Source: Dehalococcoidales bacterium (GTDB taxonomy: Bacteria; Chloroflexota; Dehalococcoidia; Dehalococcoidales; RBG-16-60-22). Taken from it: 64,000 nt of DNA. Each line of letters begins with the position of its first letter. Within the stretch, counting starts at the first letter, position 1. The DNA lies in contig JAQTMM010000001.1 in NCBI GenBank assembly GCA_028714335.1, positions 8,181 to 72,180 on the forward strand. The letters are read 5' to 3'. Of the stretch, positions 2,475 through 32,283 are shown in pieces. Position numbers and translations under genes: made by a program. The notes under the pieces were generated by a model that searched no databases, was not told the DNA's origin, and saw only the letters and a program-made list of their open reading frames with translations.

Positions 2475-3361
2475 CTTTCTTTCTGCAATTAGTTATAACG
2501 GGCTTTGGGTTAGGCATGGTTTATGCCCTCATCGCCATCGGTTTTGTCATCATCCTCAAGTGCTCCAAGGCATTTAACATAGCCCAGGGCCAGTTCGTGA
2601 TGATCGGCGGCTATTTGGGTTTCACCTTCCTAGTTACTTTTAATTTACCGGTCTGGGCTAGCATTCTTGCAGCGATCGCCGTTGCAGTTGTTATGGGGGG
2701 ACTAATTGAGAGGCTGACATTACGACCGCTAGTCGGCCAATCGGTGTTAGCTATTATTATGATGACAATTGCCCTGGGGACGATACTGGAAGGTGTTGCA
2801 ACCTTAGTATGGGGTGGAGAATATAAAGCATATCACGGAGCATTGCCTACTATAACACTAAAAGTCGGTGAATTTTCAATACCTCCTGAAACATTGATTG
2901 GAATTATAGTTTCTATATTGGTCGTAGTAGCACTAATGGCTCTCTTTCGTTATGCCAAAATTGGGCTTGCCATGCGGGCTACGGCTGAGGATGAGCAGGT
3001 TGTGCAAAGCGTTGGGATTAAAGTAACCAGCATCTATACAATTTCCTGGATGATAGCCTGTGTAGTGGGTGTCGTTAGCGGTATTATACTCGGTGGAGTA
3101 TCTGGCGTAATGGTTTCCATGTCTGAAGTAGGCATGAAAGCTTTAGCTGTCGTGCTACTTGGAGGAATTGACTCCATCGGCGGCGCGATTCTGGCAGGTA
3201 TTATTATCGGCGTATTAGAAAATGTGGCCGCGGGTTATCTGGACCCGCTATTGCCTTCTGGCGGCGGCCTCGCCAATGTTTTCCCATTTATTATTATCAT
3301 TATCGTGTTGATTTTTAAGCCACACGGCTTGTTCGGCTTGAAGAGGATAGAAAGGATTTAG
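2471..3361 (+). CDS. livH: Liv-type ABC transporter permease (LivH-like)
   Basis: 296 aa polytopic membrane protein. The N-terminus FLQLVITGFGLGMVYALIAIGF is typical of the LivH family. It is translationally coupled to its neighbours. Confidence 0.85.
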   Translation: MTFFLQLVITGFGLGMVYALIAIGFVIILKCSKAFNIAQGQFVMIGGYLGFTFLVTFNLPVWASILAAIAVAVVMGGLIERLTLRPLVGQSVLAIIMMTIALGTILEGVATLVWGGEYKAYHGALPTITLKVGEFSIPPETLIGIIVSILVVVALMALFRYAKIGLAMRATAEDEQVVQSVGIKVTSIYTISWMIACVVGVVSGIILGGVSGVMVSMSEVGMKALAVVLLGGIDSIGGAILAGIIIGVLENVAAGYLDPLLPSGGGLANVFPFIIIIIVLIFKPHGLFGLKRIERI

Positions 3362-3363
3362 TC

Positions 3364-9252: not shown

Positions 9253-10868
9253 CAGGCAACTCCTTTACGGAAGCTCTGACTGAGATCAACTAAATCCAAA
9301 TATTCCCGGATTTGTTTTTGTTTTTCTTTATTATTCCAACCTAATAATAATCCCATTTCTTGAGCGACTGATTCAACCGCGTTCCGGCCTTGGTTGTGAC
9401 TCAATCCGAGAACGCTACGGCGTAACATAAAATCACTAACAGTTAGGGCTTCTTCCTCCAATATTGCATGTTTTATTTGAGCAAATATATCCGGATATCC
9501 AGGTATGATATTTTCCCCCAGATGATTGTCCTGGTCAACATAAGCCAGTACTGAAGCTAGCCTTGAACCATAAATACTCGCGAGGTAACTGATAGTCTCG
9601 AAAGGGATGTCTTTTTTTCGGGATATTTTCAGTACATCCTCTTGACCGATTGCCGGACATCCGGGAAGCGGAGTCTGTGCCGTGGTGCAGGGGATATTTT
9701 TCAATAGCTTTTTACACACCAGGTTGACAGCTTCTTCAGCAATAGCACGGTAGGCAGTTATTTTACCTCCCAAAATCGATATTAAACCTGTCACTCCGTC
9801 TTTGCGTTGATGATCTATAAGTTTATGAGCTCTGGAGGTATTAGATTCTTTTTTCTTACTAGCTGTTACTAAAGCTCTTAATCCTGCCATAGTATAACAA
9901 ATATCATCGCGTGTAAATTGGGGAAAATAATTACAGGTCTCCGATACAAGATAATCGACATCCGTACTCCCAGCGCTTACTCTATCCAAATCGTCTGAAT
10001 AGTCTGTATCAGTTGTTCCGATTAGTGAGTAGCCGTTCCAGGGGATGACAAAAAAAACGCGATCGTCGCTTTTAGCAAACAGAAACAACGCCTGGCTAGT
10101 CAATTTCCGGGTTACCAGATGGATACCTTTTGTCCGGCGGAGATTATTCTGGCGGCTGAGGTGGACCTTATTCCAGATAAGATCAGCCCACGGTCCTGCC
10201 GCATTAATTACCATGCGTCCCCGTGCTATATATTCACGTCCCGTAATAATATCCCTAAGATTAATTCCCCTGATGGTATTACCATCCACTAGGAAACCGG
10301 TAGCTTCAGTATGGTTCAAGATGCAAGCGTTATTTCCTGCCGCACTAAGAGCGTTTTCCAGACAAAGCCGCTCCATATAGCGGGCTTGGCAATCATAAAA
10401 AAGATAAGAACCTACTAAATCCGGAATACTGGCTAGAGCCGGTTCCAGATTTAACGTTTCATCACGTGAGAGACGCTTACGAGACGGCAGACTTTTCCCC
10501 GCGGCTAGAATATCGTATAAGCACAGACCGAAAGGTAACGATATCCGGTATAATGGTTCACTCCGTAGCAGAGGTATGATGAAGGCGAGGCGGTCTACTA
10601 AGTGAGGAGCGATATGCAGCAGAGTTTCCCGCTCAAGTAGGTCTTGCCTGACCAGTTTGAAATCGAGCATGCGTAGATAACGTAGTCCGCCGTGGATCAG
10701 GCGGGTAGAGCTCGAAGTCGTACCGCAGGCGAAGTCCTCTTTTTCGACTAGTAAGGTATCTAGTCCACGGAGGGCGGCATCACGAACGATTCCGGTTCCT
10801 ATAATACCTCCCCCAATAACTATCAAATCGAACGTTTTATTTTTCAGGTTTTTAAAATTTCGTTTCAT
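9252..10868 (-). CDS. glpD: FAD-dependent glycerol-3-phosphate dehydrogenase
   Basis: 538 aa with FDLIVIGGGIIGTGIVRDAALRGL and the GTTSSSTRLIHGGLRYL block typical of GlpD/GlpA. Its stop abuts the glpK start. Confidence 0.85.
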   Translation of the reverse strand: MKRNFKNLKNKTFDLIVIGGGIIGTGIVRDAALRGLDTLLVEKEDFACGTTSSSTRLIHGGLRYLRMLDFKLVRQDLLERETLLHIAPHLVDRLAFIIPLLRSEPLYRISLPFGLCLYDILAAGKSLPSRKRLSRDETLNLEPALASIPDLVGSYLFYDCQARYMERLCLENALSAAGNNACILNHTEATGFLVDGNTIRGINLRDIITGREYIARGRMVINAAGPWADLIWNKVHLSRQNNLRRTKGIHLVTRKLTSQALFLFAKSDDRVFFVIPWNGYSLIGTTDTDYSDDLDRVSAGSTDVDYLVSETCNYFPQFTRDDICYTMAGLRALVTASKKKESNTSRAHKLIDHQRKDGVTGLISILGGKITAYRAIAEEAVNLVCKKLLKNIPCTTAQTPLPGCPAIGQEDVLKISRKKDIPFETISYLASIYGSRLASVLAYVDQDNHLGENIIPGYPDIFAQIKHAILEEEALTVSDFMLRRSVLGLSHNQGRNAVESVAQEMGLLLGWNNKEKQKQIREYLDLVDLSQSFRKGVA

Positions 10869-10931: not shown

Positions 10932-11717
10932 CTAAATATGTTTTTTTAACCACTCCTCCATATCGGCCATAACTTGAAGATACTCGGGCTCATTAAATAT
11001 CTCGTGTAAAAGTCCGGCATAGGGCTTATGCGTCTTATCCGTAGAACCTATCATATCGTACAGGACCTTACTGCGTGCGCCGTCCTCACCGCCGGCGCCG
11101 GCCATAATCAGGACCGGTAGATGAATACTCGATACCTTGGCTGTCAATTCCTGCATTCTGTTCCGCATAGCATGATTTACCGGAACTGGCCCGTGATATA
11201 CCAGAGGGTCATTGACATAAGCGGCTATTACTGCGGGGTCCCGGCTGAGCGTGGCAACGGGCAAAGGTTGGCCAGGAGGTGGAGGTTGCATTGGCGGGGT
11301 GCCAGGTTTGACTAGACCTCCACCGGATGTGATTAGTCCGGTGAGTTCACTCTGGTACTCCAGGCAATAACACAGGCTAATTATGGACCCCATACTGTGT
11401 CCGATGAGGAATATTTTTTCCTTTGGATTCTTCCGGCGTATAATATCGAAAAAGGTTTTAAGGTCTAAGACGTAATCATGGAAATCATCCACCTGGACGC
11501 GTTCGCCATCCGATTTGCCATGCCCCCGGTGATCTAGAGCATAAACAGCAAAACCACGGGGAACGAAGTAGTTAACCACATTGTCATAGCGCCCGCTATG
11601 CTCTGCAAAACCATGGGCAATCAGCAAAATCGCCTTAGGTTGGCCTTCCGGCAGCCAGTACTGATAATAGATATTGAAGTCTCGGTATCCTTTAAAATTT
11701 GCTTCCTGGTGCTTCAT
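10932..11717 (-). CDS. Alpha/beta hydrolase, monoacylglycerol lipase / lysophospholipase-like
   Basis: 261 aa with HGFAEHSGRY, HRGHGKSDG and the nucleophile elbow GHSMGS. It lies directly upstream of glpD-glpK on the same strand. Confidence 0.8.
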   Translation of the reverse strand: MKHQEANFKGYRDFNIYYQYWLPEGQPKAILLIAHGFAEHSGRYDNVVNYFVPRGFAVYALDHRGHGKSDGERVQVDDFHDYVLDLKTFFDIIRRKNPKEKIFLIGHSMGSIISLCYCLEYQSELTGLITSGGGLVKPGTPPMQPPPPGQPLPVATLSRDPAVIAAYVNDPLVYHGPVPVNHAMRNRMQELTAKVSSIHLPVLIMAGAGGEDGARSKVLYDMIGSTDKTHKPYAGLLHEIFNEPEYLQVMADMEEWLKKHI

Positions 11718-11862
11718 TGAGATATCACTCCTCTATTAATTTATATATTCACCTGTTCAGTGGCGTACGGGGAATATCTGCTATTATCCAAGGTATACTA
11801 AATTGACAATTATTCTTAACTACTGTTAAGTATTAGTGAAATATTGGTTAATATTTACATAT

Positions 11863-11879
11863 TTGACAAATAATGTCAA
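11863..11879. promoter_or_regulatory. Candidate TetR operator overlapping a candidate promoter
   Basis: Inverted repeat TTGACA-aataa-TGTCAA lies 50 nt upstream of the TetR start. TATAAT is at 11884-11889. A second TTGACA is at 11803 and a CTTAAC-tact-GTTAAG palindrome is at 11815-11830. Confidence 0.45.
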
Positions 11880-11929
11880 TATGTATAATTATAGTATAAA
11901 CAAATAATTCACGAAAATGGAGCTTGTAG

Positions 11930-12463
11930 ATGAAAGATAAAAGAAGCATCACGCGCAAGCAAATAATTGATGCAGCATCTGCCTGCTTTGCCGAGTACGG
12001 TTATGACAAGACGACCTTTGATGACGTAGCCAAAAGAGCGGGGATATCAAGAACGCTAATATATACTTATTTTAAAAGCAAGCAGGAATTTTTCTTTACC
12101 ATGATGGACGAAAAACACAAAAATTACCTGCGTCAATCTCAAGAAGTGCTCAATTCTAGTCTGTCAACCAAGGAAAAATTACGTAAAATAATCGATATTT
12201 GGATAATCGACCCTCACCGGATTATATATAAATCTCCCCTGCCCAATATCTGGCTTAAACCGGTTAAAAGTATCCAGGAAAGTGAAAAGCTGTTAAGGGG
12301 AGACTTCATAAAATCACTTGTCCCTTTAGTCGGTTATGATTTAGCAGAGGTGATTGTCTTTTCTTACAAAGGGCTGCTGGATGATAAACCCTCAATTGAA
12401 ATTTTAGAAAAACGGACTGATATTCTGATTAGCAGCTTAAAGATGCTCCCGAACGATGAATAA
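11930..12463 (+). CDS. TetR/AcrR family transcriptional regulator
   Basis: 177 aa with an N-terminal HTH region RKQIIDAASACFAEYGYDKTTFDDVAKRAGISRTLIYTYFKSK. SD ggag lies upstream. Confidence 0.9.
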   Translation: MKDKRSITRKQIIDAASACFAEYGYDKTTFDDVAKRAGISRTLIYTYFKSKQEFFFTMMDEKHKNYLRQSQEVLNSSLSTKEKLRKIIDIWIIDPHRIIYKSPLPNIWLKPVKSIQESEKLLRGDFIKSLVPLVGYDLAEVIVFSYKGLLDDKPSIEILEKRTDILISSLKMLPNDE

Positions 12464-12523
12464 CTATTAAAGGTAACGTCAAGCCCCAATCATGACTATG
12501 TAGTTATAGATTTAGAAAGGAAA

Positions 12524-13918
12524 GTGGATTCCATGCAAATTGTTAAAACGGATAAAGGCAATGTTTCAGGAACAACGATTGGTGAACCCGGGAAAGAGGT
12601 ATCCGTTTTCAGGGGCATTCCATTCGCCGCTCCACCGGCGGGAGAATTCCGCTGGCAGGCACCACAACCAGTTAAAGCCTGGTCAGGAGTGCGTGATTGT
12701 ACGCAATTCAGTCTAACCGCTCCCCAGAATCCCAGGTTCGGCGATTTATCGGCCGGTGCCAGCGAAGACTGCTTATATCTCAATGTCTTGACACCGGCTG
12801 AAACTTTTGAAGACAAGCTGCCGGTGATGGTCTGGATGCATGGAGGGATGTATGCGCTCGGCTCGGGTAATGATCTCCTCTCAAATCACTGCCGGCTGCC
12901 GCAGCACGGCATCGTGCTCGTCACCATCAATATGCGGCTTGATGTTATCGGTCTCTTAGCTCATCCCCAACTTTCTGCTGAATCGCCCAACAGTGTTTCC
13001 GGTAACTATATGTTTCTGGATATGATAGCCGCATTACAATGGGTACAGCGCAATATCGCCGCCTTTGGAGGCGACCCTAAAAATGTCACCATCTTCGGTG
13101 AGTCCGGCGGCGGCGCCAAGGTTTCAACGCTTGTAGCCTCACCACTGACGAAAGGTCTATACCATAAAGCTATCTGCGAGAGCGGTACCGCTACCGCGAG
13201 GACATGGTGGACCGGTCAGCCTTTGGAAAAACTTGAGGCGATGGGAGAAAGGATTTTTGAAATACTCGGTGTCAAAACAATTGAAGCCGCTCGGGCTATC
13301 CCCTACAAAAAAATATACGAAGCCAACGCTCAATTAATCCAAGAGAGTGGCAGTCAATGGGGTATTGTCGACGCTGCCGTGGACGACTGGTTCCTGCCCG
13401 ATACTCCGCTTAACATCTACCGTGCCGGTAAAATGAATCCGGTCCCGTTAATTAATTGCGCCAATGCCGGCGAATTGACGACCATGTTCCCGATGCTGGT
13501 GCCTGGCTATGTTGAAATGTTTAGTGGGATGGAAAAAGCTGGCACTAGCAGCTACGCCTGCATTTTTGATCAGGTACCGGCAAATTGGCGGCAGGAAGGT
13601 ATGGAGCACGCACCCCATGGCCTTGAGTTGCTGTACGTTTTTGGAGACTATGACAATACAACCGGATGGTGGGAAATGACATACGGCATGATGTCAATGA
13701 TGGGTTCACCGCTCAAATCGAAAACCCCAGGGCTGAACGAAACAGACAAGTACGTATCCGAGTCGATGATGAGATACTGGACGCAGTTTGCCCGCAACGG
13801 TGATCCTAACGGGAACGGGCTGCCAGAGTGGCCGGTATATACTACTTTAAATAACAGTTATTTATATATGAATGAGACACTTGAAGTTAAAACCGGTTTT
13901 TCTGAAATATCCAAGTAA
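12524..13918 (+). CDS. Type-B carboxylesterase (para-nitrobenzyl esterase-like), paralog 1
   Basis: 464 aa with FRGIPFAAPP, EDCLYLNV and the nucleophile motif GESGGG. No signal peptide. Confidence 0.9.
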   Translation: MDSMQIVKTDKGNVSGTTIGEPGKEVSVFRGIPFAAPPAGEFRWQAPQPVKAWSGVRDCTQFSLTAPQNPRFGDLSAGASEDCLYLNVLTPAETFEDKLPVMVWMHGGMYALGSGNDLLSNHCRLPQHGIVLVTINMRLDVIGLLAHPQLSAESPNSVSGNYMFLDMIAALQWVQRNIAAFGGDPKNVTIFGESGGGAKVSTLVASPLTKGLYHKAICESGTATARTWWTGQPLEKLEAMGERIFEILGVKTIEAARAIPYKKIYEANAQLIQESGSQWGIVDAAVDDWFLPDTPLNIYRAGKMNPVPLINCANAGELTTMFPMLVPGYVEMFSGMEKAGTSSYACIFDQVPANWRQEGMEHAPHGLELLYVFGDYDNTTGWWEMTYGMMSMMGSPLKSKTPGLNETDKYVSESMMRYWTQFARNGDPNGNGLPEWPVYTTLNNSYLYMNETLEVKTGFSEISK

Positions 13919-13933
13919 CAAAATGGAGTGTTT

Positions 13934-15673
13934 ATGGAAAGAATCGTTGACGAGATAGTGTATCCTAATCCCACTCCTCCCGGCGTTAACCTCGAAAAAA
14001 ATGTGTATGCGACTATGCGTGACGGCATAAAAATAGCACTAGATATCTATAAACCAGCCGATGAAAAAGGACCATGGCCGGTTATATTAGCCTATTCTCC
14101 TTTCCCCAAGGAGCGCATTTTCGAAAGTGCCAAACCCGGTTTTTATTGCTCTCATGGTTATGTGTGTGTGCAGGCTAGCGAGCGTGGCAGCGGTTTTAAC
14201 CAGGGTAGATTCAATTTACACGGAACGCAGGCTGCGCAGGATGGATATGACCTGGTGGAATGGATTGCCGGGCAACCATGGTGTACTGGGAATGTGGGTA
14301 TGATGGGCGCTTCCGGTTACGGCGTTATGCAGTGGCTAACTGCGCCCCTGAATCCGCCTCACTTAAAAGCGTTGGTAGTGCTGGCTACCACGGACAATTA
14401 CCGGGGCCTGTGTTACCCCGGCGGCGTGTTACGTAAACCGTTTGTCTTGAACCTGGTTTCAGGATTGACGCAAGGAGCAATTTGGCCCGGCCCTATCTCC
14501 GGCAAAGAAATGCCCATGAATGTCATTGCGGAAATCCTGGCACATACGGAAGACGGGCCTTTCTGGTGGGAGCACGGCGGCGGCTGGAAGCGGATAAGCG
14601 AGATAAAAGCTCCAGTATTGAATATTGTCAACGCGCCTAATCGTTTACATGCCATCTATCATTTAAGATCGTATGCGGATATAAAGTCCCCGAAGAAACT
14701 TATCGTGACCCCGTGGACTAACGAGAACTACCAGCCATGGATATTCGAAACAACAGCCTTCAATATGCAAATATTGCGATGGCTGGACTACTGGCTGAAA
14801 GGTGTCGACACCGGCATCATGGATGAACCGGAAGTAGCTATCTTCGATAACGGTATTGGAACCTGGCGGTATGAAAACGAGTACCCGTTAAAGCGTACCG
14901 TGTGGACGAAATTCTATCTACATGATGAAGTAATCAACCAGACGCAACCCCTAGCAAATGAACAACCTGATTTCTACGAAAATATCAGTCTGAATACTGC
15001 CATGTTGGCTTCTTACGGTATCGATATGCCAGTTTCTCCAAAGAAAAACTATATAACGTATCTTTCATCACCTCTGGAGGAAGATATCAAGGTGTGTGGG
15101 CCGGTTAGTTTTACGCTATATGCCTCGACTACTGAAGAGGTTACTAGCGACTGGTCGTTCTTCATAAAAATGGGAGAGATGGTGTCTGAAGGAACTCCTC
15201 TTAACCCCATTACCGATCAGCCAGAAACAAAGCCCGAGGTTAACGATAGATTTACACCAGAGAATGTTCAGATATGGAGCTGGGGTTCACTCAAGGCAAA
15301 GTTCCGTGAAATTGACGAGAGACTGTCTCGACCCGGCTCTCCGTGGCACTCGTATCAAAGCTCCCAACAGCTGGAGCCCTGTACTATCTACGAGTTTCAG
15401 ATTGAACTCCAACCGGTCTTTAAAACTTTTAGAAAAGGCTGTCGTATCTGGCTAAAAATCGCCAGTGACGATGTTCTTTATGCCACGCTGGATAGCGCAT
15501 CGAGGTATGTAGAAACACCAATTTCACCGGAAAACAGCCAGATTTCCATTTATCATAACGTTAAGTATCCATCGCATATATTGCTGCCCGTCATTCCAGA
15601 CGCTCCTGAAATCGCGTCTGTAAAACCACCACTATGCGACGCCTTACCGGGAGCACCGCGTTTTACGGAATAA
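13934..15673 (+). CDS. CocE/NonD family hydrolase (X-Pro dipeptidyl-peptidase S15 family)
   Basis: About 579 aa with typical N-terminal blocks (MRDGIKIALDIYKP, GYVCVQASERGSG, DGYDLVEWIAGQPWCTGNVGMMGASGYG). I chose ATG 13934 (SD ggag 5 nt upstream) over GTG 13928. Confidence 0.85.
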   Translation: MERIVDEIVYPNPTPPGVNLEKNVYATMRDGIKIALDIYKPADEKGPWPVILAYSPFPKERIFESAKPGFYCSHGYVCVQASERGSGFNQGRFNLHGTQAAQDGYDLVEWIAGQPWCTGNVGMMGASGYGVMQWLTAPLNPPHLKALVVLATTDNYRGLCYPGGVLRKPFVLNLVSGLTQGAIWPGPISGKEMPMNVIAEILAHTEDGPFWWEHGGGWKRISEIKAPVLNIVNAPNRLHAIYHLRSYADIKSPKKLIVTPWTNENYQPWIFETTAFNMQILRWLDYWLKGVDTGIMDEPEVAIFDNGIGTWRYENEYPLKRTVWTKFYLHDEVINQTQPLANEQPDFYENISLNTAMLASYGIDMPVSPKKNYITYLSSPLEEDIKVCGPVSFTLYASTTEEVTSDWSFFIKMGEMVSEGTPLNPITDQPETKPEVNDRFTPENVQIWSWGSLKAKFREIDERLSRPGSPWHSYQSSQQLEPCTIYEFQIELQPVFKTFRKGCRIWLKIASDDVLYATLDSASRYVETPISPENSQISIYHNVKYPSHILLPVIPDAPEIASVKPPLCDALPGAPRFTE

Positions 15674-15780
15674 AGTTAATGCTAAAAGATAATATGGCTA
15701 GAGCGGTTTCCCAAACACTATTATTTATTGGCGCCACTTAAAAGCTAAAAGATTTTTGTTAAGGAAGGGCTGATAGAAAA

Positions 15781-16221
15781 ATGAATGATTATGAGAAAAG
15801 ACTAAAGAAATTAGAGGATATCCAAGCCATCAAGGATTTACATAGAGAATATGTTTACTGGGTTAATAACTGTGAATGGGATAAAGTAATTGAGTGTTTC
15901 ACAGAAGACTGTTCTGTCAATATCGGGAGTTGGGGTTTACGCAATGGCAAAGATTCGCTGCCAAAACTCTTTAAAGAAGATATCGCCCATAATAACAAAG
16001 GCAAAGGCAGGGATGGCCATTTTGCTATTATGCCCGTAATTACTGTTGACGGTGATAAAGCCAAAGGCCATTGGTTAATGTATATTATGATATCAGACCC
16101 GAAAACCGGGAAAGCCCTGAAGTGGGCAATCGGAAGACATGACGTAGAATATGCCAGACTCAATGGAAATTGGAAGATTCATAATATTATTTGGGCTAGT
16201 CCTTGGCCGGCGAATCTTTAA
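15781..16221 (+). CDS. SnoaL-like / NTF2-fold protein
   Basis: 146 aa. The N-terminus LEDIQAIKDLHREYVYWVNNCEWDKVIECFTEDC is typical of SnoaL_4-type NTF2-like proteins. Confidence 0.65.
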   Translation: MNDYEKRLKKLEDIQAIKDLHREYVYWVNNCEWDKVIECFTEDCSVNIGSWGLRNGKDSLPKLFKEDIAHNNKGKGRDGHFAIMPVITVDGDKAKGHWLMYIMISDPKTGKALKWAIGRHDVEYARLNGNWKIHNIIWASPWPANL

Positions 16222-16371
16222 TTATTTTTTCAAGGCAGGATTCACGGTTTTGTTGTCTTTATTACATCTCTGCAATATAATCAGGTACGGATTCATAGTG
16301 ATTTAAAATATTACCTGCAGATTACTGACTCTACCATAATCTTGTAAAAAGTAAAGTTTTTAGAGGCGAAA

Positions 16372-17019
16372 ATGGGTAAAAAATGTCTGATTACGTATTC
16401 CTCAATCACAGGCCACACAGAAAAAGTGGCGCTTAAATTCAAAGATACATTTGAAACACGCGGCTGGCAATGTGATGTTTTCAAAGTACGTAAAAACGCT
16501 GAAGATATTCTCCGGCCTCCTTTTGATATCCGTTCCTATGATTTTGTATGCGCCGGCTCTGGACTAAGGGCTCATCTACCTTATAATGAAGTACTAAACA
16601 TGTTAAGAGGATTTAGAACGGGGATGGATCCTCGCATTACGTTAAAGTTCAGGGATGAAACCATTTCCTATATAAATGAACCCGTACCTGAAATACCTCC
16701 ACACAAAGACCCAAAGATTGAACATAAAAAAATAATTCTGGGACCCGATTCACCTAAGGCAGTAGTATTCATCACCTATGCCGGCTACGAATTCGGACCT
16801 AAAGAGGCAGAGCCTGCTTCAACGTTACTGGCATTAGAACTGGAGCATATCGGTTTCCAATGTATTGGTCATTTTTACTGTCCGGGTACGTATCTTGATA
16901 ATCCCATGCCCAGGACTTTCCATGGAGATATCCGCGGCAGACCTGATGAGAAAGATTTACTGAAAGCACAGATGTTTATCGAAGAAAAGCTTGAGGAGAT
17001 AGCTGACCGGAATAAATAA
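16372..17019 (+). CDS. Flavodoxin-like fold protein
   Basis: 215 aa. The N-terminal KCLITYSSITGHTEKVA resembles the flavodoxin FMN phosphate-binding loop. A long insertion follows. Confidence 0.55.
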   Translation: MGKKCLITYSSITGHTEKVALKFKDTFETRGWQCDVFKVRKNAEDILRPPFDIRSYDFVCAGSGLRAHLPYNEVLNMLRGFRTGMDPRITLKFRDETISYINEPVPEIPPHKDPKIEHKKIILGPDSPKAVVFITYAGYEFGPKEAEPASTLLALELEHIGFQCIGHFYCPGTYLDNPMPRTFHGDIRGRPDEKDLLKAQMFIEEKLEEIADRNK

Positions 17020-17047
17020 TCCCGTCGGCAGAAAGAACATTGACGTT

Positions 17048-17989
17048 ATGAGTACGATAAATTCCGTTCTCGGCCCACTAGATACTAAAGACCTAGGTTT
17101 TACGTTAATGCATGAACATGTGATGTGTCAGGCCTTCGTTGCAGATAATTATCCTGAACTCTTCGGCGATGGTTACATGAACCATATTATTAATGGCGTA
17201 ACAGCGGCTAAGAAAGGCGGCGTTGATACCATCATTGACGCTACTACTTTCGACCTAGGGCGAGATGTAACGAGACTGGCTGAAATTGCCCGGCGTACTA
17301 AGGTTAACATTATAGCCTGTACCGGATGGTGGATGAATGCACCCGAGCACATCGCTGGTAATTCTCCTGACTTATATGCCGACCTGTTCGTCCGAGAGAT
17401 TCAACAAGGTATTGCCGGCACCGGAATTAAAGCCGGCATCCTTAAATCCGCGGCCGATTTTGGAGGTGTAACGGCAACAGGTGAAATAATGTTGCGCGCT
17501 GTGGCTAGAGCCCACCGCCGGACTTTAGTCCCTATCATGTTGCATTCATACGCTCCTGAACAGGTAGCCAGACGGCAGTTAGCTATCCTTAAAGAGGAGG
17601 GGGTTGAACTGAAAAGGGTCGCGGTTGACCATGTTAATGACACCACTGATTTTGAATACCTTAACTGGCTTTTAGAACAGGGATGTTATCTTGGTATGGA
17701 CCGTTATCCGGGGCTCAACTTAAGTTCATATGCCCGAACAAAAACCCTGAAGCAGTTAATTGATGATGGATGGATTGACCGCCTGCTTCCTTCGCATGAT
17801 TTATGTTTGGTTACTCCTTTAACATTTTATCCGCCTGAAGTAAAAGCAAGTATTGATAAGGAGAATCCCTATGGATATCTTTACATCAAGGAGGTTGTAT
17901 TCCGCCAGCTTGAAGATATGGGAGTATCACAAGCTGTGTTGAAAACGCTTTGTATAAATGGTCCGAGGAAGTTTTTCGAGGGCTTATAG
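17048..17989 (+). CDS. Phosphotriesterase-related amidohydrolase (PTE/PHP family, possibly lactonase)
   Basis: 313 aa with GFTLMHEHV (HxH metal motif), conserved later His residues (IMLHS, DHVND) and the SHD block. Confidence 0.8.
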   Translation: MSTINSVLGPLDTKDLGFTLMHEHVMCQAFVADNYPELFGDGYMNHIINGVTAAKKGGVDTIIDATTFDLGRDVTRLAEIARRTKVNIIACTGWWMNAPEHIAGNSPDLYADLFVREIQQGIAGTGIKAGILKSAADFGGVTATGEIMLRAVARAHRRTLVPIMLHSYAPEQVARRQLAILKEEGVELKRVAVDHVNDTTDFEYLNWLLEQGCYLGMDRYPGLNLSSYARTKTLKQLIDDGWIDRLLPSHDLCLVTPLTFYPPEVKASIDKENPYGYLYIKEVVFRQLEDMGVSQAVLKTLCINGPRKFFEGL

Positions 17990-18019
17990 AGTATTTTTAT
18001 TCAACGGTAATATACTAGT

Positions 18020-19561
18020 ATGATTAGACCACAACAAGAGAAAAAGATAATCAATACCCGGGTTGGCTACCTGCCGCCCCTGAAACCGCCGCCTGTTAAA
18101 AACAGAAAAGACATAGTCCCTGAGAGGATTTATAATTTTGAAATTCCGTCTGATCCCGTTCCATTTAGTGAAATCAAGAAATATATAGATGCTGAAGTTG
18201 TGGTAGTAGGGGCTGGCATCGCCGGATTAAGTGCGGCTCTTTCTGCAGCCGAAGCAGGGACCAAGACTATATTGTTAGAAAAGACGGCTACAGTCCAGGC
18301 TCGCGGTCATGATAACGCCTTTATCGGCAGCCGGCTTCAAGCGAAGTTAGGCATAAAAATTGATAAAGACGAAATCATCTTGAATCTCATGAAATACGGG
18401 GCTAACAAACCCGATCAAAGATTGATAAGGATGTGGGCAGAGGGAAGCGGAAAAACTGCAGACTGGCTGATGGATATGACGGATACTGCGGGTATCGAGG
18501 TGATTATAAAACAATATCCTCCCCCACCAGCATTCAATAACACTACCGAATATTATCCTCAATACCACGTTACGCACCATTATCGTAATGAACGTCTGGT
18601 AGCAAAATGCTTACTAGATAATGCAATAAAAAAAGGCGTTGTCACGTATTTTAAGACTCGTGCTAAGCAATTGTTGCGAAAAGGAAAAGACCGGGTCACC
18701 GGCGTCATCGCCCAAAATGAAGCTGGAGAATATCTACAATTCAATGCTGCTAAAGCCGTTATACTCTGTACCGGAGATTACGGCAATAACGCCGAAATGA
18801 TGGCTAAATATTGTCCTCAATCAGCCTATCTCGCGCCAATGATACTTACCTCTACCGGAGATGGGCATATAATGGCTATGTGGATTGGTGGCGTAATGGA
18901 ACCGGGACCGCATACACCGATGATACACGGCCCCGCCGGTCCCCTGCTTAGTGCGGCCTACTTACAAGTAAATCTCCTTGGGAAAAGATTTCAAAATGAA
19001 GATGTACCGATTCAAAGTAATGTCAATGCCGTTGAACGACAACCCAATAGAATAGCCTGGCAGGTATTCGATTCCAAATATCCGGCTGAACTCCCTTATC
19101 ATGGGCTGGGCTTGGGTAAAATTATCATTGCGACGGGAAAAATACGGCAGGAAGTATCCCAAGTAGCTATCGCAGCCAACTCAATCGAAGAACTGGCGGT
19201 AAAGATGAAACTGCCCATCGTAACGTTCAAGGCTACCGTAAAGAGGTACAATGAATTGGCACGTTCGGGGAAAGACCTGGATTTTGGGAAACGGTCTGAC
19301 CGGATGTCTCCGATTGACAAGCCACCATACTATGCCGGTAAAAGTGGTTATTCTTTACTTACCGTCCTGGGTGGTCTGAATATCAATGATAGGTTACAGC
19401 CACTAGATAAAAACTGGGAAGTCATTCCTGGAATTTATCTTGCAGGAAATACCATGGGTAACCGTTTCTCTATCGATTACCCAACTATGTGTCCCGGGCT
19501 TAGTCACGGTATGGCCATACACTATGGGCGGATTGCTGGTTTAAACGCAGTATATCAATAA
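18020..19561 (+). CDS. FAD-dependent oxidoreductase, FAD_binding_2 type (3-ketosteroid dehydrogenase / fumarate-reductase flavoprotein-like)
   Basis: 513 aa with dinucleotide motif VVVVGAGIAGLSAALSAAEAG and C-terminal PGIYLAGN. Subfamily cannot be fixed by eye. Confidence 0.75.
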   Translation: MIRPQQEKKIINTRVGYLPPLKPPPVKNRKDIVPERIYNFEIPSDPVPFSEIKKYIDAEVVVVGAGIAGLSAALSAAEAGTKTILLEKTATVQARGHDNAFIGSRLQAKLGIKIDKDEIILNLMKYGANKPDQRLIRMWAEGSGKTADWLMDMTDTAGIEVIIKQYPPPPAFNNTTEYYPQYHVTHHYRNERLVAKCLLDNAIKKGVVTYFKTRAKQLLRKGKDRVTGVIAQNEAGEYLQFNAAKAVILCTGDYGNNAEMMAKYCPQSAYLAPMILTSTGDGHIMAMWIGGVMEPGPHTPMIHGPAGPLLSAAYLQVNLLGKRFQNEDVPIQSNVNAVERQPNRIAWQVFDSKYPAELPYHGLGLGKIIIATGKIRQEVSQVAIAANSIEELAVKMKLPIVTFKATVKRYNELARSGKDLDFGKRSDRMSPIDKPPYYAGKSGYSLLTVLGGLNINDRLQPLDKNWEVIPGIYLAGNTMGNRFSIDYPTMCPGLSHGMAIHYGRIAGLNAVYQ

Positions 19562-19572
19562 GGAGGGACTTG

Positions 19573-21012
19573 ATGAATCAAATTAAATTAGATACTGGTG
19601 ATATTACAGGCTCTAAAGTAAGTCAATCGGGTCGTGATGTCTATATCTATAAAGGCATTCCTTATGCCGCCCCTCCGGTTGGTGAATTACGCTGGAAGCC
19701 GCCGCAGCCGGCAGCATTGTGGTCCGGTGTCCTGGCATGTACCGAATTCAGTGTTCAAGCCGCCCAATACCCGGACCCCAATGGTCCCGGGACAATGAAA
19801 AGTGTAGCAACGAGTGAAGATTGCCTTTACCTAAACGTCTTGACTCCAACTCAAAATAAAAACGATAAGTTACCAGTGATGGTTTGGTTGCATGGCGGCG
19901 GTCTTAGATATGGAAACGGCAACTTTCCTTTAAGTGTCAATCTCGGGCTGCCACTCCATGGAGCCGTGCAGGTGAATATTAATCATCGCTTAGGGGTCAT
20001 GGGCCTACTGGCGCATCCCCTGCTTACCAGAGAATCTTCCCAACACGCTTCAGGTGATTACATGTTCCTCGATATGATAGCTGCCTTACAATGGGTAAAA
20101 CGAAATATTGCCGCTTTTGGCGGCGACCCCAATAATGTGACCATCTTTGGCGAGTCCGGCGGTGGACTGAAAGTTGCCGCCCTTATGGCTTCACCATTAG
20201 CTAATGGGTTATTCCATCGGGCGATCATCGAAAGCGGCGGACGTTACTTCGATTCAGAACCACTCAAAGAAATGGAAACGTTCGGAGAAAGACTATTTCA
20301 CAAACTCGGCATTGATAAAGAAAAAGACCCTCTAGCCGCAGTACGTGAATTACCCTGGGAAACGATTATTAATACCGATCAGGAACTTAATACTGAGATG
20401 GGGCCGGAATACCTGTTCATGGGTCCGTGGCAAGTTGTTCACGAAGGCTGGTTTTTGCCGGAGAACTTAGTCGACATGTTCCAGAACGGCCGGAGGAATC
20501 AAGTACCTTATATCGTGGTAGCCAACAAAGGAGAGTTGACCGGTCCCGGTTCGCTGATTGCCAACATGATGATTAAAGACTACTTAAGGTTATTAACCGG
20601 GCAAAGTACTGCTAATTCGCGGGGATACGCCGCGCTCTTTGACCAGGTGCCGGAAGGTTGGAAGCGCGAAGGCTGTGTGGCGTCTCATGGCATGGAACTG
20701 CATTTTGTATTCGGCGCTCTCGATGATACAGAATCCTGGGCGGCGAGTAAGGGCGGGTACGCTTCTTCTGGAGCACAGTCTCCGATTCCTACGATATCTA
20801 ATTCGGATAGGGTAGTTGCTGAAACCATTCTGACCATATGGACTACGTTTGCCAAAACCGGTAATCCCAGCGTGAAAGGACTCATCGAGTGGCCGGCCTG
20901 GGATGAAGCTACTGATAAATATCTATTAATTACCGATCCTCTTCAGATAAAGCAAGGATATTCTGACCTCATGAAAATTAAACCTGACACATCGAAATGG
21001 ACCATTGTTTAG
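19573..21012 (+). CDS. Type-B carboxylesterase, paralog 2
   Basis: About 479 aa with YKGIPYAAPP, EDCLYLNV and GESGGG, clearly paralogous to 12524-13918. ATG 19573 has the SD aggaggg 5 nt upstream; TTG 19570 is the alternative. Confidence 0.9.
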   Translation: MNQIKLDTGDITGSKVSQSGRDVYIYKGIPYAAPPVGELRWKPPQPAALWSGVLACTEFSVQAAQYPDPNGPGTMKSVATSEDCLYLNVLTPTQNKNDKLPVMVWLHGGGLRYGNGNFPLSVNLGLPLHGAVQVNINHRLGVMGLLAHPLLTRESSQHASGDYMFLDMIAALQWVKRNIAAFGGDPNNVTIFGESGGGLKVAALMASPLANGLFHRAIIESGGRYFDSEPLKEMETFGERLFHKLGIDKEKDPLAAVRELPWETIINTDQELNTEMGPEYLFMGPWQVVHEGWFLPENLVDMFQNGRRNQVPYIVVANKGELTGPGSLIANMMIKDYLRLLTGQSTANSRGYAALFDQVPEGWKREGCVASHGMELHFVFGALDDTESWAASKGGYASSGAQSPIPTISNSDRVVAETILTIWTTFAKTGNPSVKGLIEWPAWDEATDKYLLITDPLQIKQGYSDLMKIKPDTSKWTIV

Positions 21013-21127
21013 TGATAACGTTGTTGAGGAATCGTATTGTATCCCTAGGGAGAAAATATACAAAAGTCTATCCAAAAAAGTTCAATATTACGTATCAGCA
21101 GTTAAATAAGTCATAGGAGAGGCACTC

Positions 21128-21886
21128 ATGAAAACTAGCGGTAATACAATTTTGATTACAGGAGGAGCCACCGGTATCGGTTTCGGCCTCGCTGAAGCTT
21201 TTATAAATGCAGGTAACAGAGTGCTTATTTGTGGGAGAAGACAGGCTAAGCTAGAAGAAGCCAGACTAAAATTACCGGATTTACAGATATTTCAATGTGA
21301 TGTCACGTCAAAAGATGGTCGCGAATCTCTCTGCAATTGGGTAAAAAATCAGCATCCAAGTTTAAATATCTTAGTGAATAATGCTGGAGTTTCTGGCCTT
21401 ATCGATTTTAAGAAAGGTGTTCCGGAAGCATTTAAAAGCGAAGATGAAATTGAAACCAACCTTAAAGCTCCGGTATTGTTATCAGGTTATTTTATACCTC
21501 TGCTACTAGGGAAAACCGACGCTGCGATTATCAACATTTCTTCAGGTTTAGCTTTCATTCCCCTGGTTTCTTCACCTTTATACGGTGCCACTAAAGCCGG
21601 GCTCCATTCCTTCAGCCTCGCTTTAAGATTCCAATTGAAAGACACAAATATTAAAGTCTTTGAGCTGATGCCGCCAATCTGTGACACGGATTTAGGCAAG
21701 GATGCTTCCGACGATGCCCCAAGACCATCGTATCTTAAGGGAATCCCGCCTTCCGAATTTGCTAAAGATGCGTTAACCGCTATAGAGAATGATCAATATG
21801 AATTTGCCTCCGGTGAAGCCAAACAGCTGAAAGATGGTTCCCAGCGGAACTTTGAAGAGACTTTTCAATCAACTAATAGCCGGTAA
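21128..21886 (+). CDS. Short-chain dehydrogenase/reductase (SDR)
   Basis: 252 aa with cofactor motif TGGATGIG, NNAG and catalytic YGATK. Confidence 0.9.
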   Translation: MKTSGNTILITGGATGIGFGLAEAFINAGNRVLICGRRQAKLEEARLKLPDLQIFQCDVTSKDGRESLCNWVKNQHPSLNILVNNAGVSGLIDFKKGVPEAFKSEDEIETNLKAPVLLSGYFIPLLLGKTDAAIINISSGLAFIPLVSSPLYGATKAGLHSFSLALRFQLKDTNIKVFELMPPICDTDLGKDASDDAPRPSYLKGIPPSEFAKDALTAIENDQYEFASGEAKQLKDGSQRNFEETFQSTNSR

Positions 21887-21985
21887 TACGCATTATATAT
21901 TGTGGTTCAAACAGAGTCCGACTCTCCCCAGACTCCTTACTCAGCTAAATAAATGTCTATTTTGTTGAATATCGGTATTTGAGTG

Positions 21986-22031
21986 TACAATTATGAATTT
22001 AAACTGAAGGAAAGTTCAAAGGTTCTATCTG
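21986..22031 (+). repeat. Copy 3 of the 46-bp intergenic direct repeat
   Basis: tacaattatgaatttaaactgaaggaaagttcaaaggttctatctg, with 3 mismatches to copy 1. The downstream flank actgcagcccatca resembles the copy 1 flank. It is followed by a bulged hairpin at 22057-22084. Confidence 0.9.
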
Positions 22032-22716
22032 TTGGACACTGCAGCCCATCACTAAAGCCAAAAGAGGCTTTTAGACCTCTTGGCTGAAGCTGGAAGAGGT
22101 TTCCAAATCCCCCAATAAAAGCTGAACGAGTTTTCTAGATCCCCCTATTGTTGTTCAATCTAGCGCAATTGAACAAAACTGATATTTGTGCAATGTCGCC
22201 TCATTGAGCTATAAGTTATATTGAATAATTTCAAGAATTAGCTTGTTTATCATCCCTGCTTCTCTATAGTGAAAATAAAAAAGTAAAATGAATCATATGA
22301 CACTCGAATGAATAAGCAGAAAAAATGATGGAGCTTTATCCAGGAATTATCTAAAAATATATAGAAAGAACAAATGAGTCGTCCGACTATATTTGTGAGA
22401 AAATAGCCCAGGTGATTTTCGGGGTAGGACCTTTGTCAAATATATTTAAAAAATCTTCTTTATCCTTAAAAGGACAAGCCTCTTCTGTCTAACAAGCAAG
22501 GTGAAGGTCTCTCTCACCGGTTTTCCGTGCTTATCTTGAATCCCGGGTTGGCTTGGTGTAGCCTGAGTCAGGCAATCTCAAACGAGCTGTAGCAAAGGCA
22601 TTTCTATCCAAATCCAAGTATCTGATCATTTATCAGACACAAGAGCAACCGAGGATGTATAATAAAGAGAAAAGCTTTTATATCTCGGTAAATCCTCATC
22701 AGCATGGAGAAGACGA

Positions 22717-23601
22717 ATGCCAACGGGACTCAAAATAAACTGCAGCGATCCATCTAAAGCCGACATCGTAATTTTATGTGCTCCTTATGACAGAACTGCT
22801 TCGTTCCGCAAAGGCGCAGTGAAAGGCCCGGCTGCAATAGTATCGAGCCTCAAATATCAGATGGAAACATACGATCGATTTGCCGGTTCAATGCCTTCGC
22901 CGGAGCGCAAGATTTCCATGTGTGAATTAAGAAACCTTAACCGACGTTCACCGTCTGCCATGGTAAGCTGCGTTAAACAGGAATACGAGAGGTATATCAA
23001 TCATGGAGCTTTTGTCTTGATGATCGGTGGTGAGCACTCCGTTTCCACCGGCGCTCTTGAGGCACTGGCTTCGCTTAATAATTCACGAGAGATCACTGTT
23101 TGCCAAATCGATGCACACTTGGATCTGCGACATGACGATTCCGATTATAGTGACAGTCCGCATGGCATGTACGCCCACTGCACCGTCATGAGGAGAGCTG
23201 TTGACCTCGGATTTAAGTGCGCCCACGTGGGTGTTCGGGCATACGCCAAAGAAGAAATGGATTTCGCCCGGGACAACGGGCATAAAGTATTCGAATGGGG
23301 AATAAGTCCGGTTCCCAATCCGGAAATTATCGTGGAATCAATCACTACAGATCTGGTTTACTTGACGATCGATGTTGATGGTATTGATCCTGCGTATATG
23401 CCTGCCACTGGAACTCCAGTTCAAGGCGGTTTAGAGTGGTACTATACCTTTAACCTGCTCCGAAGTCTTTTCCAGAATAAGGAAATTATTGGCGCCGATG
23501 TGGTTGAAGTGGCGCCACGCCCCTTCGATGTTTTAACAGAATATGGCGCGGCTCAACTTTGCTATACAATTCTAGCTCTCAGGGAAACCTGTAAAAAATA
23601 A
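22717..23601 (+). CDS. speB: Agmatinase / arginase-family ureohydrolase
   Basis: 294 aa with Mn-ligand blocks GGEHS, IDAHLDL and DVDGIDP. It lies directly upstream of an arginine decarboxylase gene. Confidence 0.85.
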   Translation: MPTGLKINCSDPSKADIVILCAPYDRTASFRKGAVKGPAAIVSSLKYQMETYDRFAGSMPSPERKISMCELRNLNRRSPSAMVSCVKQEYERYINHGAFVLMIGGEHSVSTGALEALASLNNSREITVCQIDAHLDLRHDDSDYSDSPHGMYAHCTVMRRAVDLGFKCAHVGVRAYAKEEMDFARDNGHKVFEWGISPVPNPEIIVESITTDLVYLTIDVDGIDPAYMPATGTPVQGGLEWYYTFNLLRSLFQNKEIIGADVVEVAPRPFDVLTEYGAAQLCYTILALRETCKK

Positions 23602-23649
23602 CTCCCTATAATCAACAAATTTATCTGATATATGCAAACAGGAGGACCG

Positions 23650-24195
23650 ATGAAAATACCAAAGATGATGTTCCTAACCAAGGGCGTCGGTATTGATAAA
23701 AACAGGCTGTCTTCTTTTGAGCTTGCCCTGCGCAGCGCTGGTATCGAGCGTTTTAACCTCGTGCATGTATCTAGTATCTTGCCGCCTCTCTGCAAGGTTG
23801 TCCCCAAAAATGAAGGTGTTCTGGAATTGGTAGATGGACAGATTGTTTATTGTGTGATGGCTAGGAATGAAACCAACGAACCCAACAGGCTGATATCCGC
23901 TTCAATCGGTGTCGCCATGCCGAAGAACAAAAAACACTATGGCTATCTTTCAGAACATCACGCCTTCGGTCAAACTGCGGAAATTGCTGGAGATTATGCC
24001 GAAGATCTGGCTGCAACTATGCTGGCTTCCACCCTGGGGATACCCTTTGACCCGGATCAAGCCTGGGACGAACGCAAAAAATTATATCGGGCTACTGGCA
24101 TATTTTTCAAGACAAGCAATTGTTGTCAATCGGTTGAGGGAAATAAGGACGGACTCTGGACTACCGTGATCGCAGCGGCTGTTTTTATCACGTAA
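23650..24195 (+). CDS. pdaD: Pyruvoyl-dependent arginine decarboxylase
   Basis: N-terminus KIPKMMFLTKGVGIDKNRLSSFELALRSAGIERFNLVHVSSILPP carries the Ser-Ser self-cleavage site of the PdaD family. I chose ATG 23650 (SD aggagg) over ATG 23632. Confidence 0.85.
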   Translation: MKIPKMMFLTKGVGIDKNRLSSFELALRSAGIERFNLVHVSSILPPLCKVVPKNEGVLELVDGQIVYCVMARNETNEPNRLISASIGVAMPKNKKHYGYLSEHHAFGQTAEIAGDYAEDLAATMLASTLGIPFDPDQAWDERKKLYRATGIFFKTSNCCQSVEGNKDGLWTTVIAAAVFIT

Positions 24196-32256: not shown

Positions 32257-32283
32257 ATATTTGCCTTTCATCTAACTTTATGT

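Follow-up and report, generated by a model that had tools for sequence, protein, structure and literature searches.

HcrAB and VprA of Lactiplantibacillus plantarum are cytoplasmic flavin-dependent enzymes that reduce C=C bonds in conjugation with an aryl or carboxyl group. HcrAB consists of an FMN-reductase-like protein and a catalytic flavoprotein, which are encoded by adjacent genes, form a heterodimer and reduce hydroxycinnamates (PMC10295242). The soluble fumarate reductases (FRDs) and the urocanate reductase UrdA also reduce a C=C bond, and combine full flavin and capping domains. The phosphotriesterase-like lactonases (PLLs) hydrolyse gamma- and delta-lactones and dihydrocoumarin, and their metal ligands are His22, His24, Lys137, His170, His199 and Asp256 (PMC3468530). 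Genes resembling both groups lie together in a 64,000-nt stretch of the genome of a Dehalococcoidales bacterium (contig JAQTMM010000001.1), here called the window, in an island of eight genes behind a TetR-family regulator. Three of them, encoding a flavodoxin-like protein (Fld), a phosphotriesterase-like protein (PTE) and an FAD_binding_2 flavoenzyme (FAD in gene orders), form the only set that recurs widely in related loci. The reading we favour, although tentatively, is that the products of the island act as a two-component flavin C=C reductase and a lactonase, fed by esterases and working on neutral ester or lactone compounds, and that the genes constitute a laterally exchanged cytoplasmic island.

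The locus resembles HcrAB and VprA in its proposed chemistry, and HcrAB also in its gene arrangement. Just as the FMN-reductase-like partner in HcrAB, a protein of the flavodoxin-fold class, is encoded beside the flavoprotein, so in most evaluable ortholog loci the Fld gene is found no further than two genes from FAD. Fld is, however, a separate protein of 215 aa from an unannotated family, and the flavoenzyme has no fused FMN-reductase domain. The regulator is of the TetR family rather than LysR-type, and the lactonase is an integral neighbour. Characterised PLLs usually stand alone and are discussed as quorum-quenching enzymes, whereas the PTE gene here is locked between those for Fld and the flavoenzyme. 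Literature searches found no description of this gene cluster. Uncultured, non-dehalogenating Dehalococcoidales abound in anoxic sediments, wetlands and peat, and what is said of their sources of carbon is largely guesswork. The Fld-PTE-FAD set, which is under strong purifying selection, present in hundreds of near-identical metagenome copies and exchanged between lineages, is a concrete target for enzyme discovery towards explaining their diet. Each component is of a known kind, and the locus holds the key to no question of long standing.

The island is real but ordinary-looking, being a catabolic island of recognisable families. The TetR-family regulator (177 aa; 11930-12463; Pfam TetR_N, 64 bits) reaches the cut-off of no NCBIfam equivalog. 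Eight genes follow it on the same (+) strand. These encode a type-B carboxylesterase, CE1 (464 aa; 12524-13918; COesterase, 343.5 bits against a cut-off of 27), a CocE/NonD (S15)-like protein (581 aa; 13928-15673; Peptidase_S15, 133 bits, and PepX_C, 72 bits), a SnoaL_4 protein of the NTF2 fold (146 aa; 15781-16221; Pfam SnoaL_4, 83 bits), Fld (215 aa; 16372-17019; predicted flavodoxin/WrbA fold), the PTE-like predicted lactonase (313 aa; 17048-17989; Pfam PTE, 229 bits), the flavoenzyme (513 aa; 18020-19561; Pfam FAD_binding_2, 130 bits), a second type-B carboxylesterase, CE2 (480 aa; 19570-21012; COesterase, 305.5 bits against the same cut-off of 27), and a classical short-chain dehydrogenase/reductase (SDR; 252 aa; 21128-21886; adh_short, 144.5 bits). 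From TetR through SDR the intergenic gaps measure 60, 9, 107, 150, 28, 30, 8 and 115 bp. The notable features are the conserved and mobile Fld-PTE-FAD set, a CocE-like protein without a full catalytic triad and a link to a glycerol operon.

The original prediction, made from the sequence of the window, had described this arrangement of a TetR gene followed by eight genes on one strand at 11930-21886, and its family names agree with Pfam and NCBIfam or, for Fld, with the predicted fold. The motifs it listed are all found in the translations (GESGGG in both esterases, MHEH, GAGIAG, TGGATGIG and YGATK), and the two carboxylesterases are indeed paralogs, with 45% identity. Its statement that the proteins lack signal peptides agrees with a crude Kyte-Doolittle check, in which no N-terminal hydrophobic or transmembrane-like segment appeared. 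The interpretation built on these observations is partly supported; the pathway as proposed is over-extended. Scans of the window gave no Rfam match and no tRNA.

Related loci were anchored on the Fld protein and on the flavoenzyme (70 metagenome loci), and all window proteins were mapped onto them; the numbers L001, L002 and so on denote such loci in other assemblies and metagenomes. Ortholog loci are the 42 whose flavoenzyme is at least 67% identical. Twenty-three with at least 1.9 kb upstream are evaluable, and ten, some of them pairs from one population, are well flanked, each side extending for 5 kb or more. A PTE-based scan of genome contigs led to a single related metagenome-assembled genome, L001 (DAIQQC010000004.1, Dehalococcoidales), which is 85% identical in nucleotide sequence to the window over 13920-19558. 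The genes do co-occur in other genomes, the opposite of the outcome that the original prediction had named as its refutation, but the complete gene order is confined to very close relatives (L002, L003 and L014), and the eight do not make up one conserved pathway. L001, L012 and L036 have the arrangement CocE-SnoaL-Fld-PTE-FAD-CE2 and lack TetR, CE1 and SDR; L005-L008 and L027 have TetR-GlpK-Fld-PTE-FAD-CocE-CE-SDR beside a divergent Hydrolase_4-GlpD pair. Fld-PTE-FAD is found in 14 of the 23 evaluable loci. Two more (L030/L031) have the order FAD-Fld-PTE, and five (L015, L017, L023, L034 and L045) have Fld-FAD without PTE.

Among the ten well-flanked loci, Fld and PTE are each near FAD in eight, a type-B esterase in five, CocE in three, SnoaL in two, and SDR, TetR and the glycerol genes in one each. 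Although the contigs are short, 16 of the 42 ortholog loci have a type-B esterase no more than 8 kb away, and the esterases beside Fld-PTE-FAD are different paralogs from locus to locus (31-96% identity). Paralogous clades of the flavoenzyme (45-64% identity) lack Fld and PTE, and several have SnoaL_4-like neighbours. Fld-PTE-FAD, as the only widely recurring set, is therefore the conserved unit, whereas the esterases are frequent but interchangeable and the remaining genes lineage-specific.

The ratio of non-synonymous to synonymous substitution (dN/dS, by the method of Nei and Gojobori) lies between 0.06 and 0.17 for all island genes, which are thus functional and under strong purifying selection. 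The proportion of synonymous differences (pS, by the same method) separates the island from its surroundings. Between the window and L005, the flanking genes (GlpD, Hydrolase_4, TetR and GlpK) have pS values of 0.81-0.84, which are saturated, and protein identities of 43-67%, whereas for the island genes pS is 0.29-0.67 and protein identity 79-91%. The island therefore diverged much later than its surroundings, and this contrast points to lateral, gene-specific exchange between lineages of Dehalococcoidales and not to constraint at the protein level alone. Mosaic structure is seen at closer range. The window and L002 are 93-97% identical except at ~17000-19560, the PTE and FAD genes, where identity falls to 80-88% and the window is closer to L001 (86-90%) than to L002; PTE and FAD have thus been replaced together as one block. 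A search of sequenced plasmids with tblastn gave nothing above 34% identity, so a plasmid vehicle is unsupported. The GC content is unchanged at the borders of the island; over the window it is 0.43-0.47 in the first 24 kb, which hold transport genes, the glycerol genes, the island and the arginase-family and arginine decarboxylase genes, and 0.45-0.55 (mostly 0.48-0.55) in the remainder.

The downstream border has also been rearranged. A MarR-family regulator is reduced to a remnant of its first 53 codons (21902-22060, + strand; tblastn, 75% over 53 aa), whereas L002, a close relative, has the gene intact. There, about 1.06 kb (8827-9884) lies between SDR and an arginase-family gene; the window has 257 bp in its place, and at 22316-22444 the last 43 codons of a 147-aa open reading frame (ORF) remain. 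A second regulator of the locus has thus been lost in this genome.

Such rearrangement invites the view that there is no common pathway at all, the site being a recombination hot-spot that has collected independent detoxification or scavenging hydrolases together with a redox pair, so that co-location records the history of transfer. The strong variation in composition from locus to locus, with Fld-PTE-FAD alone stable, agrees with this, as do the mosaic exchange, the differing esterase paralogs, the shuffled gene order (CocE stands before or after Fld-PTE-FAD, and GlpK inside or outside the island), a promoter-like box within the island and the deletion of the MarR gene beside it. A mere collection sits less well with genes that all lie on one strand, with gaps of 8-30 bp inside two sub-blocks, with the exchange of PTE and FAD as a single unit, with the recurrence of a type-B esterase in 16 of 42 ortholog and five of ten well-flanked loci, or with the strong purifying selection on every gene. 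We take the hot-spot to be a serious possibility, although a minority one.

On sequence grounds, the flavoenzyme is a member of a cytoplasmic orphan clade of the superfamily that includes fumarate reductase, urocanate reductase, VprA and the ketosteroid dehydrogenases (KstDs). Its best curated model over the full length is that of the vinylphenol reductase VprA (NF053717), an enzyme with a neutral substrate, with residues 58-510 aligned to positions 7-478 of 481; the score of 179.7 bits is far under the cut-off of 600. Among solved structures, the closest to the flavoenzyme are soluble fumarate reductases (flavocytochrome c3; pdb:1d4c and pdb:1qjd; 121 bits over residues 58-510), and UrdA (pdb:6t85) matches over the full length with 108 bits. 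Like these enzymes, the flavoenzyme has the full flavin and capping domains; unlike them, it has no signal for export and no haem or FMN_bind domain, and its active site differs. In the alignment to 1d4c, the FRD residues H365, R402, H504 and R545 correspond to P300, I331, a leucine and a methionine, and the E378/R381 relay is lost, E378 being replaced by A312 and R381 deleted. With its substrate-binding and catalytic residues replaced, the Arg proton donor among them, the protein is not a fumarate reductase, and a dicarboxylate is probably not its ligand. The automatic JGI name ‘fumarate reductase flavoprotein subunit’ is therefore misleading, and the enzyme without fumarate-binding residues that bears it is an annotation trap now corrected. 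The orthologs form a single cluster at 50% identity, and the next clusters, at most 50% identical, are unnamed or automatically labelled.

The original prediction had called this flavoprotein ‘KstD-type’ and had combined it with the SDR and the NTF2-fold protein. In this scheme the esterases would deacylate an esterified alicyclic compound (a steroid or terpenoid), after which the SDR, the KstD-type flavoprotein and a dehydratase or isomerase of the NTF2 fold would oxidise, desaturate and isomerise it in the manner of ring-A chemistry. There is some ground for it. KstDs share the superfamily, and the C-terminal two-thirds of the flavoenzyme (residues 193-512) match the delta4-(5alpha)-KstD 4at0 with 91 bits, other KstDs (pdb:4c3x and pdb:7p18) scoring 55-57 bits over part of the protein. 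A DYP...G stretch near the C-terminus may correspond to the KstD Tyr/Gly motif; a query with the C-terminal 320 residues gave alignments to FRDs only. The SnoaL_4 protein weakly matches the bile-acid dehydratase BaiE (E ~1e-3), the matches of the SDR include 17beta-HSD14, and in 12 of 66 loci a SnoaL_4-like gene stands beside a member of a paralogous FAD_binding_2 clade.

The same comparisons nonetheless give the flavoenzyme nearer relatives. The FRD and UrdA matches extend over the full length and score higher than the partial ones to KstDs, VprA provides the best curated model, and the KstD equivalogs PRK12844 and PRK07843 give 116 and 112.5 bits, each in two stretches, against cut-offs of 789 and 788. 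The other two proteins are accessory. Of the ten well-flanked loci, just one has SDR and two have SnoaL together with the flavoenzyme, and the SDR ortholog is confined to loci of the window type and the L005 type. The SDR has its expected motifs (TGGATGIG at residue 11, NNAG at 84 and YGATK at 152) and only generic relatives in the PDB; the PDB matches of the SnoaL_4 protein, to the SnoaL-like 8abv and to BaiE, are weak (E 2e-4 to 2e-3). Furthermore, the host is anaerobic and has no evident high-potential acceptor for desaturation, and the window holds no further genes for the catabolism of steroids or terpenoids. A ring-A pathway is therefore quite unlikely.

Fld, the partner proposed for the flavoenzyme, is recognised by its fold. 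Against Pfam Flavodoxin_1 it scores 23.3 bits, under the cut-off of 25, and over the N-terminal 50-60 residues only. The AF2 model (pLDDT 82.7, pTM 0.83) retrieves WrbA, flavodoxins and the flavodoxin domains of flavodiiron proteins with Foldseek (E 3e-8 to 1e-5, TM ~0.5), and the sequence SITGHT at residue 11 resembles an FMN-binding loop. Fld is a putative FMN-dependent electron-transfer partner of the flavoenzyme. Its family has 417 members; among the best 120 of the 417, all at least 75% identical, those with names are nearly all ‘hypothetical’.

The PTE-like protein matches its Pfam model over the full length (cut-off 22.4), and its best PDB match is 4if2, a ‘phosphotriesterase homology protein’ (209 bits). 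The set of binuclear-metal ligands expected of the family (four His, one Asp and a carboxylated Lys), matched by motif and order rather than by superposition, is complete: H22, H24, K133, H166, H195 and D251. In length and in the equivalent positions of these six ligands it agrees with PLLs such as SsoPox, SisLac and the Mycobacterium tuberculosis PHP-type protein 4if2, and it is a putative lactonase.

If PTE were instead a true phosphotriesterase, the island could serve to detoxify organophosphates and other xenobiotic esters together with the carboxylesterases. PTE does score 183 bits against the organophosphate hydrolase (OPH) model and ~185 bits against solved phosphotriesterases; a type-B carboxylesterase with a PTE is the classical combination for detoxifying organophosphates, and an alkylsulfatase-like metallo-beta-lactamase gene lies upstream. 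The OPH equivalog, however, has a cut-off of 500, so that PTE is not an OPH ortholog, and the best solved relative is the homology protein named above. PTE-like lactonases are described as native lactonases that have phosphotriesterase activity only as a promiscuous side reaction. The module is abundant in contigs of sediment, wetland and peat type which, to judge from some recognised sample names, are not obviously exposed to pesticides. We regard detoxification of this kind as extremely unlikely.

Both type-B esterases carry the GESGG nucleophile elbow, at residue 192 in CE1 and 194 in CE2. Stretches of the form HG(L/M)EL and (A/K)GEL are compatible with the His and Glu of a Ser-Glu-His triad. 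The best PDB matches of CE2 are the fumonisin B1 esterase FumD and the pNB esterase PnbA of Bacillus subtilis (~203 bits), which are its nearest solved relatives and share the elbow; CE1 and CE2 differ from them in being shorter, cytoplasmic and duplicated within one locus. Orthologs of CE1 occur in close relatives only, and elsewhere other type-B paralogs with 31-54% identity are found, while orthologs of CE2 (79-96% identity) lie near Fld-PTE-FAD in several loci.

The CocE-like protein is a clear member of its family by score (TIGR00976, 242.5 bits against a cut-off of 66.3), and shares with CocE/NonD the S15 domain, the PepX_C jelly-roll and the nucleophile serine motif. The catalytic triad of Rhodococcus CocE is Ser117-Asp259-His287. 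In HMMER alignments to 1ju3 and 1l7r, the nucleophile motif is retained as GAS129GYG, but VNAPN and PWTN stand opposite GWYD(259) and PWSH(287) of CocE, so that both of the other catalytic residues are replaced by Asn. Confidence in the alignment is moderate at the Asp259 position and high at the His287 position. VN-xPN and PWTN show no variation among 17 ortholog copies (72-95% identity), whereas a CocE paralog in L022, 25% identical, keeps NWYD and GPWAH. The prediction of four hydrolases from three families thus stands as to the families; the count is probably three canonical hydrolases and one non-canonical or non-catalytic protein. The name ‘CocE/NonD hydrolase’, given to a protein in which the catalytic Asp and His are missing, is a second annotation trap corrected here. 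Four ortholog loci contain tandem genes for paralogous proteins of 294 and 286 aa with no match in Pfam or NCBIfam; the pair adjoins the CocE-like gene on its upstream side in L001 (4994-6776) and L012 (457-2239), and in L022 (4503-6285) it separates CE2 from a CE1-like esterase.

Divergent from TetR is an operon, overlooked in the original prediction, of three genes on the - strand. The first (10932-11717) encodes a Hydrolase_4 alpha/beta hydrolase resembling monoacylglycerol lipases and lysophospholipases (Pfam Hydrolase_4, 199 bits), with a GHSMG nucleophile motif at residue 106; its orthologs are also found near Fld in L005-8, L010 and L066. The second (9252-10868) encodes a glycerol-3-phosphate dehydrogenase-like flavoprotein, GlpD, with Pfam domains DAO and DAO_C and a score of 356.7 bits against NCBIfam PRK12266, just short of the cut-off of 360. 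The last (7750-9252) encodes the glycerol kinase GlpK (PRK00047, 757 bits, cut-off 498; TIGR01311, 708 bits, cut-off 590), the ortholog of which stands within the island operon in L005-L008, between TetR and Fld.

The divergent intergenic region between TetR and Hydrolase_4 measures 212 bp and contains a candidate TetR operator, TACATATTTGACAAATAATGTCAATATGTA, an imperfect palindrome of 30 bp (11856-11885, no strand). Its core, TTGACA-N5-TGTCAA at 11863-11879, had already been noted in the original prediction and is real (one match against 0.07 expected). The core is a perfect palindrome and coincides with the -35 hexamers of a promoter-like site on each strand, and the half-site (ACATATT.GACA / TGT..AATATGT) is kept in the corresponding intergenic region of L005, even though the TetR of L005 is only 42% identical. 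It is a reasonable inference from these sequences that the operator would be common to both directions of transcription. Since both divergent promoters overlap with the predicted operator, co-repression of the island with Hydrolase_4, GlpD and GlpK is probable, which would place glycerol esters among the inputs in this genome.

One may go further and see in the whole a regulon for scavenging glycerol esters, in which the serine esterases and Hydrolase_4 free glycerol for GlpK and GlpD, TetR senses the lipid or fatty-acid moiety and the redox genes are bystanders. Besides the common operator, the position of GlpK between TetR and Fld-PTE-FAD in L005-8 and the Hydrolase_4 orthologs near Fld in L010 and L066 speak for this, and the N-terminus of TetR resembles Bacillus FadR (53 bits, far below the cut-off). 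Glycerol genes are found, however, in just one of the ten well-flanked ortholog loci, no genes for beta-oxidation are nearby, and the saturated synonymous divergence of the flanks, which the island does not share, marks the island as the later arrival at the site. Such a regulon would also leave the most conserved genes, Fld, PTE and FAD, without a role. We consider it very unlikely.

The 150-bp gap before Fld contains a promoter-like site, TTGTCT-17 nt-TATAAT (16253-16281, + strand), and a conserved box, GCAATATAATCAGGTAC (16272-16288, + strand). The core of the box, AATATAATCAGGTAC, is near-invariant in the window, L001, L002, L024, L026 and L044 despite different upstream genes, the exceptions being one substitution in L044 and one gap in L026. 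Of the promoter-like sites, only the two backed by conservation were used. No terminator-like site was found on the + strand in the intergenic gaps of the island, the sole one on that strand lying inside the FAD gene (19414-19431). We infer at least two transcription units, TetR-CE1-CocE-SnoaL and Fld-PTE-FAD-CE2(-SDR), and the conserved box before Fld probably drives the core module separately. A unit led by Fld with its own promoter-like site fits a portable module.

A different conserved leader precedes Fld in four other loci (L015:185-390, L017:1269-1474, L021:1280-1485 and L009:9771-9976); in L009 the Fld gene that bears it has no adjoining FAD or PTE. It consists of TTGACA and then ~130 nt of GC-rich, stem-forming sequence, with a mean column identity of 77% over the four loci. 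A likeness to the FMN riboswitch, seen by eye, was not borne out, as there was no Rfam match at the gathering threshold or at E<=10. The leader may be a regulatory RNA of a type not yet recognised, or no more than a promoter region that has been conserved.

The neighbours of Fld-PTE-FAD in other loci bear on the lifestyle of the hosts. In L039 (1-6546) the genes for an activase, a glycyl-radical enzyme (GRE), an esterase, Fld, PTE, FAD, a DUF3237 protein and an NmrA-like protein follow one another on one strand, and in L022 a GRE gene (15547-17958) adjoins Fld-PTE-FAD. These GREs belong to the group of PFL2, glycerol dehydratase and sulfopropanediol dehydratase, and correspond to no equivalog (617 bits against the TIGR01774 cut-off of 678). 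GREs co-operonic with Fld-PTE-FAD in these relatives point to an anaerobic host. In an anaerobic host, a flavoenzyme that has no site for a dicarboxylate would be likely to reduce a C=C bond in a neutral substrate, and the constant presence of the lactonase suggests a lactone as substrate or product.

Under the reading we favour, Fld would hand electrons to the flavoenzyme in an HcrAB-like arrangement, and the flavoenzyme would act on a neutral substrate other than a dicarboxylate, in which it would reduce (or, less likely, form) a C=C bond in conjugation with a carbonyl or aryl group. The PTE-like lactonase would open the lactone ring of the flavoenzyme's substrate or product. Candidate substrates derived from plants or necromass include lactones of coumarin or butenolide type as well as phenolic or acyl esters, and the variable type-B carboxylesterases would release precursors from esters. 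The CocE-like protein, which lacks the canonical Ser-Asp-His triad, may be a binding or non-canonical subunit, whereas SnoaL_4 and SDR would be lineage-specific additions. The GlpK/GlpD/lipase-like operon would consume glycerol set free from glycerol esters. A more specific proposal, which we consider doubtful, is that Fld, PTE and the flavoenzyme together are a previously undescribed anaerobic module that reduces and opens unsaturated lactones or neutral enones of coumarin or butenolide type, possibly with the CocE-like protein assisting as a non-catalytic or non-canonical subunit, and that has spread by gene-specific lateral transfer among Dehalococcoidales of sediments and wetlands.

Several observations weigh against the reading we favour. 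The flavoenzyme has no characterised ortholog, and the direction of its reaction is deduced from lifestyle alone. The components do not always travel together. Flavoenzyme orthologs without both Fld and PTE occur in L033/L035 and L028, where there is enough upstream sequence, and probably also in L029 and L040, outside the well-flanked set; conversely, Fld at 78-83% identity stands without FAD or PTE in L009 and L010, and may thus be a general redox carrier. The link to glycerol is found in few lineages only, and the promoter and terminator scans are overall at chance level. The surroundings of Fld-PTE-FAD elsewhere are heterogeneous and argue against one fixed pathway. Besides the GREs, they include a HAL-like ammonia-lyase with an MFS transporter (L021), an isochorismatase with two HGD-D subunits (L024 and L030) and a sugar-acid dehydratase with a DHDPS-type aldolase (L019).

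The ammonia-lyase raised the idea of an aryl-acrylate or urocanate as the substrate, but it occurs in a single locus and is a lead rather than evidence. Molybdoenzymes of the DMSO-reductase family are encoded beside orthologs or paralogs of the flavoenzyme in L033 (2312-4963), L035 (7127-9778) and L056 (5275-7929), the last of which, representative of its cluster, has an N-terminal domain like that of pyrogallol hydroxytransferase. Enoate-reductase-like proteins with OYE and Pyr_redox_2 domains and DctP binding proteins are also found near the paralogs. These neighbours suggest a broader reductive chemistry of aromatics or polyphenols in these organisms.

Several other genes of the window surround the island and its divergent operon. 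Upstream of the glycerol genes lie those for an AMP-binding, acyl-CoA-synthetase-like protein (540-2474), unannotated ORFs (2471-4416), a Peripla_BP_6 solute-binding protein (4510-5835) and the alkylsulfatase-like metallo-beta-lactamase, which has an Alkyl_sulf_dimr domain (6128-7360). The AMP-binding protein qualifies the earlier statement that there is no CoA ligase, which is correct for the island but not for its wider neighbourhood. Directly downstream of the island, at 22717-24195, are genes for an arginase-family (agmatinase-like) protein and a pyruvoyl-dependent arginine decarboxylase (PvlArgDC), syntenic in L002 and L003 with 95-98% identity; the pair probably serves polyamine synthesis. 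Further on, an MMPL-family transporter of 840 aa with a weak match to the sterol-sensing domain (34958-37480) adjoins two Zn-dependent alcohol dehydrogenases (31168-33366), and is probably unrelated to the island.

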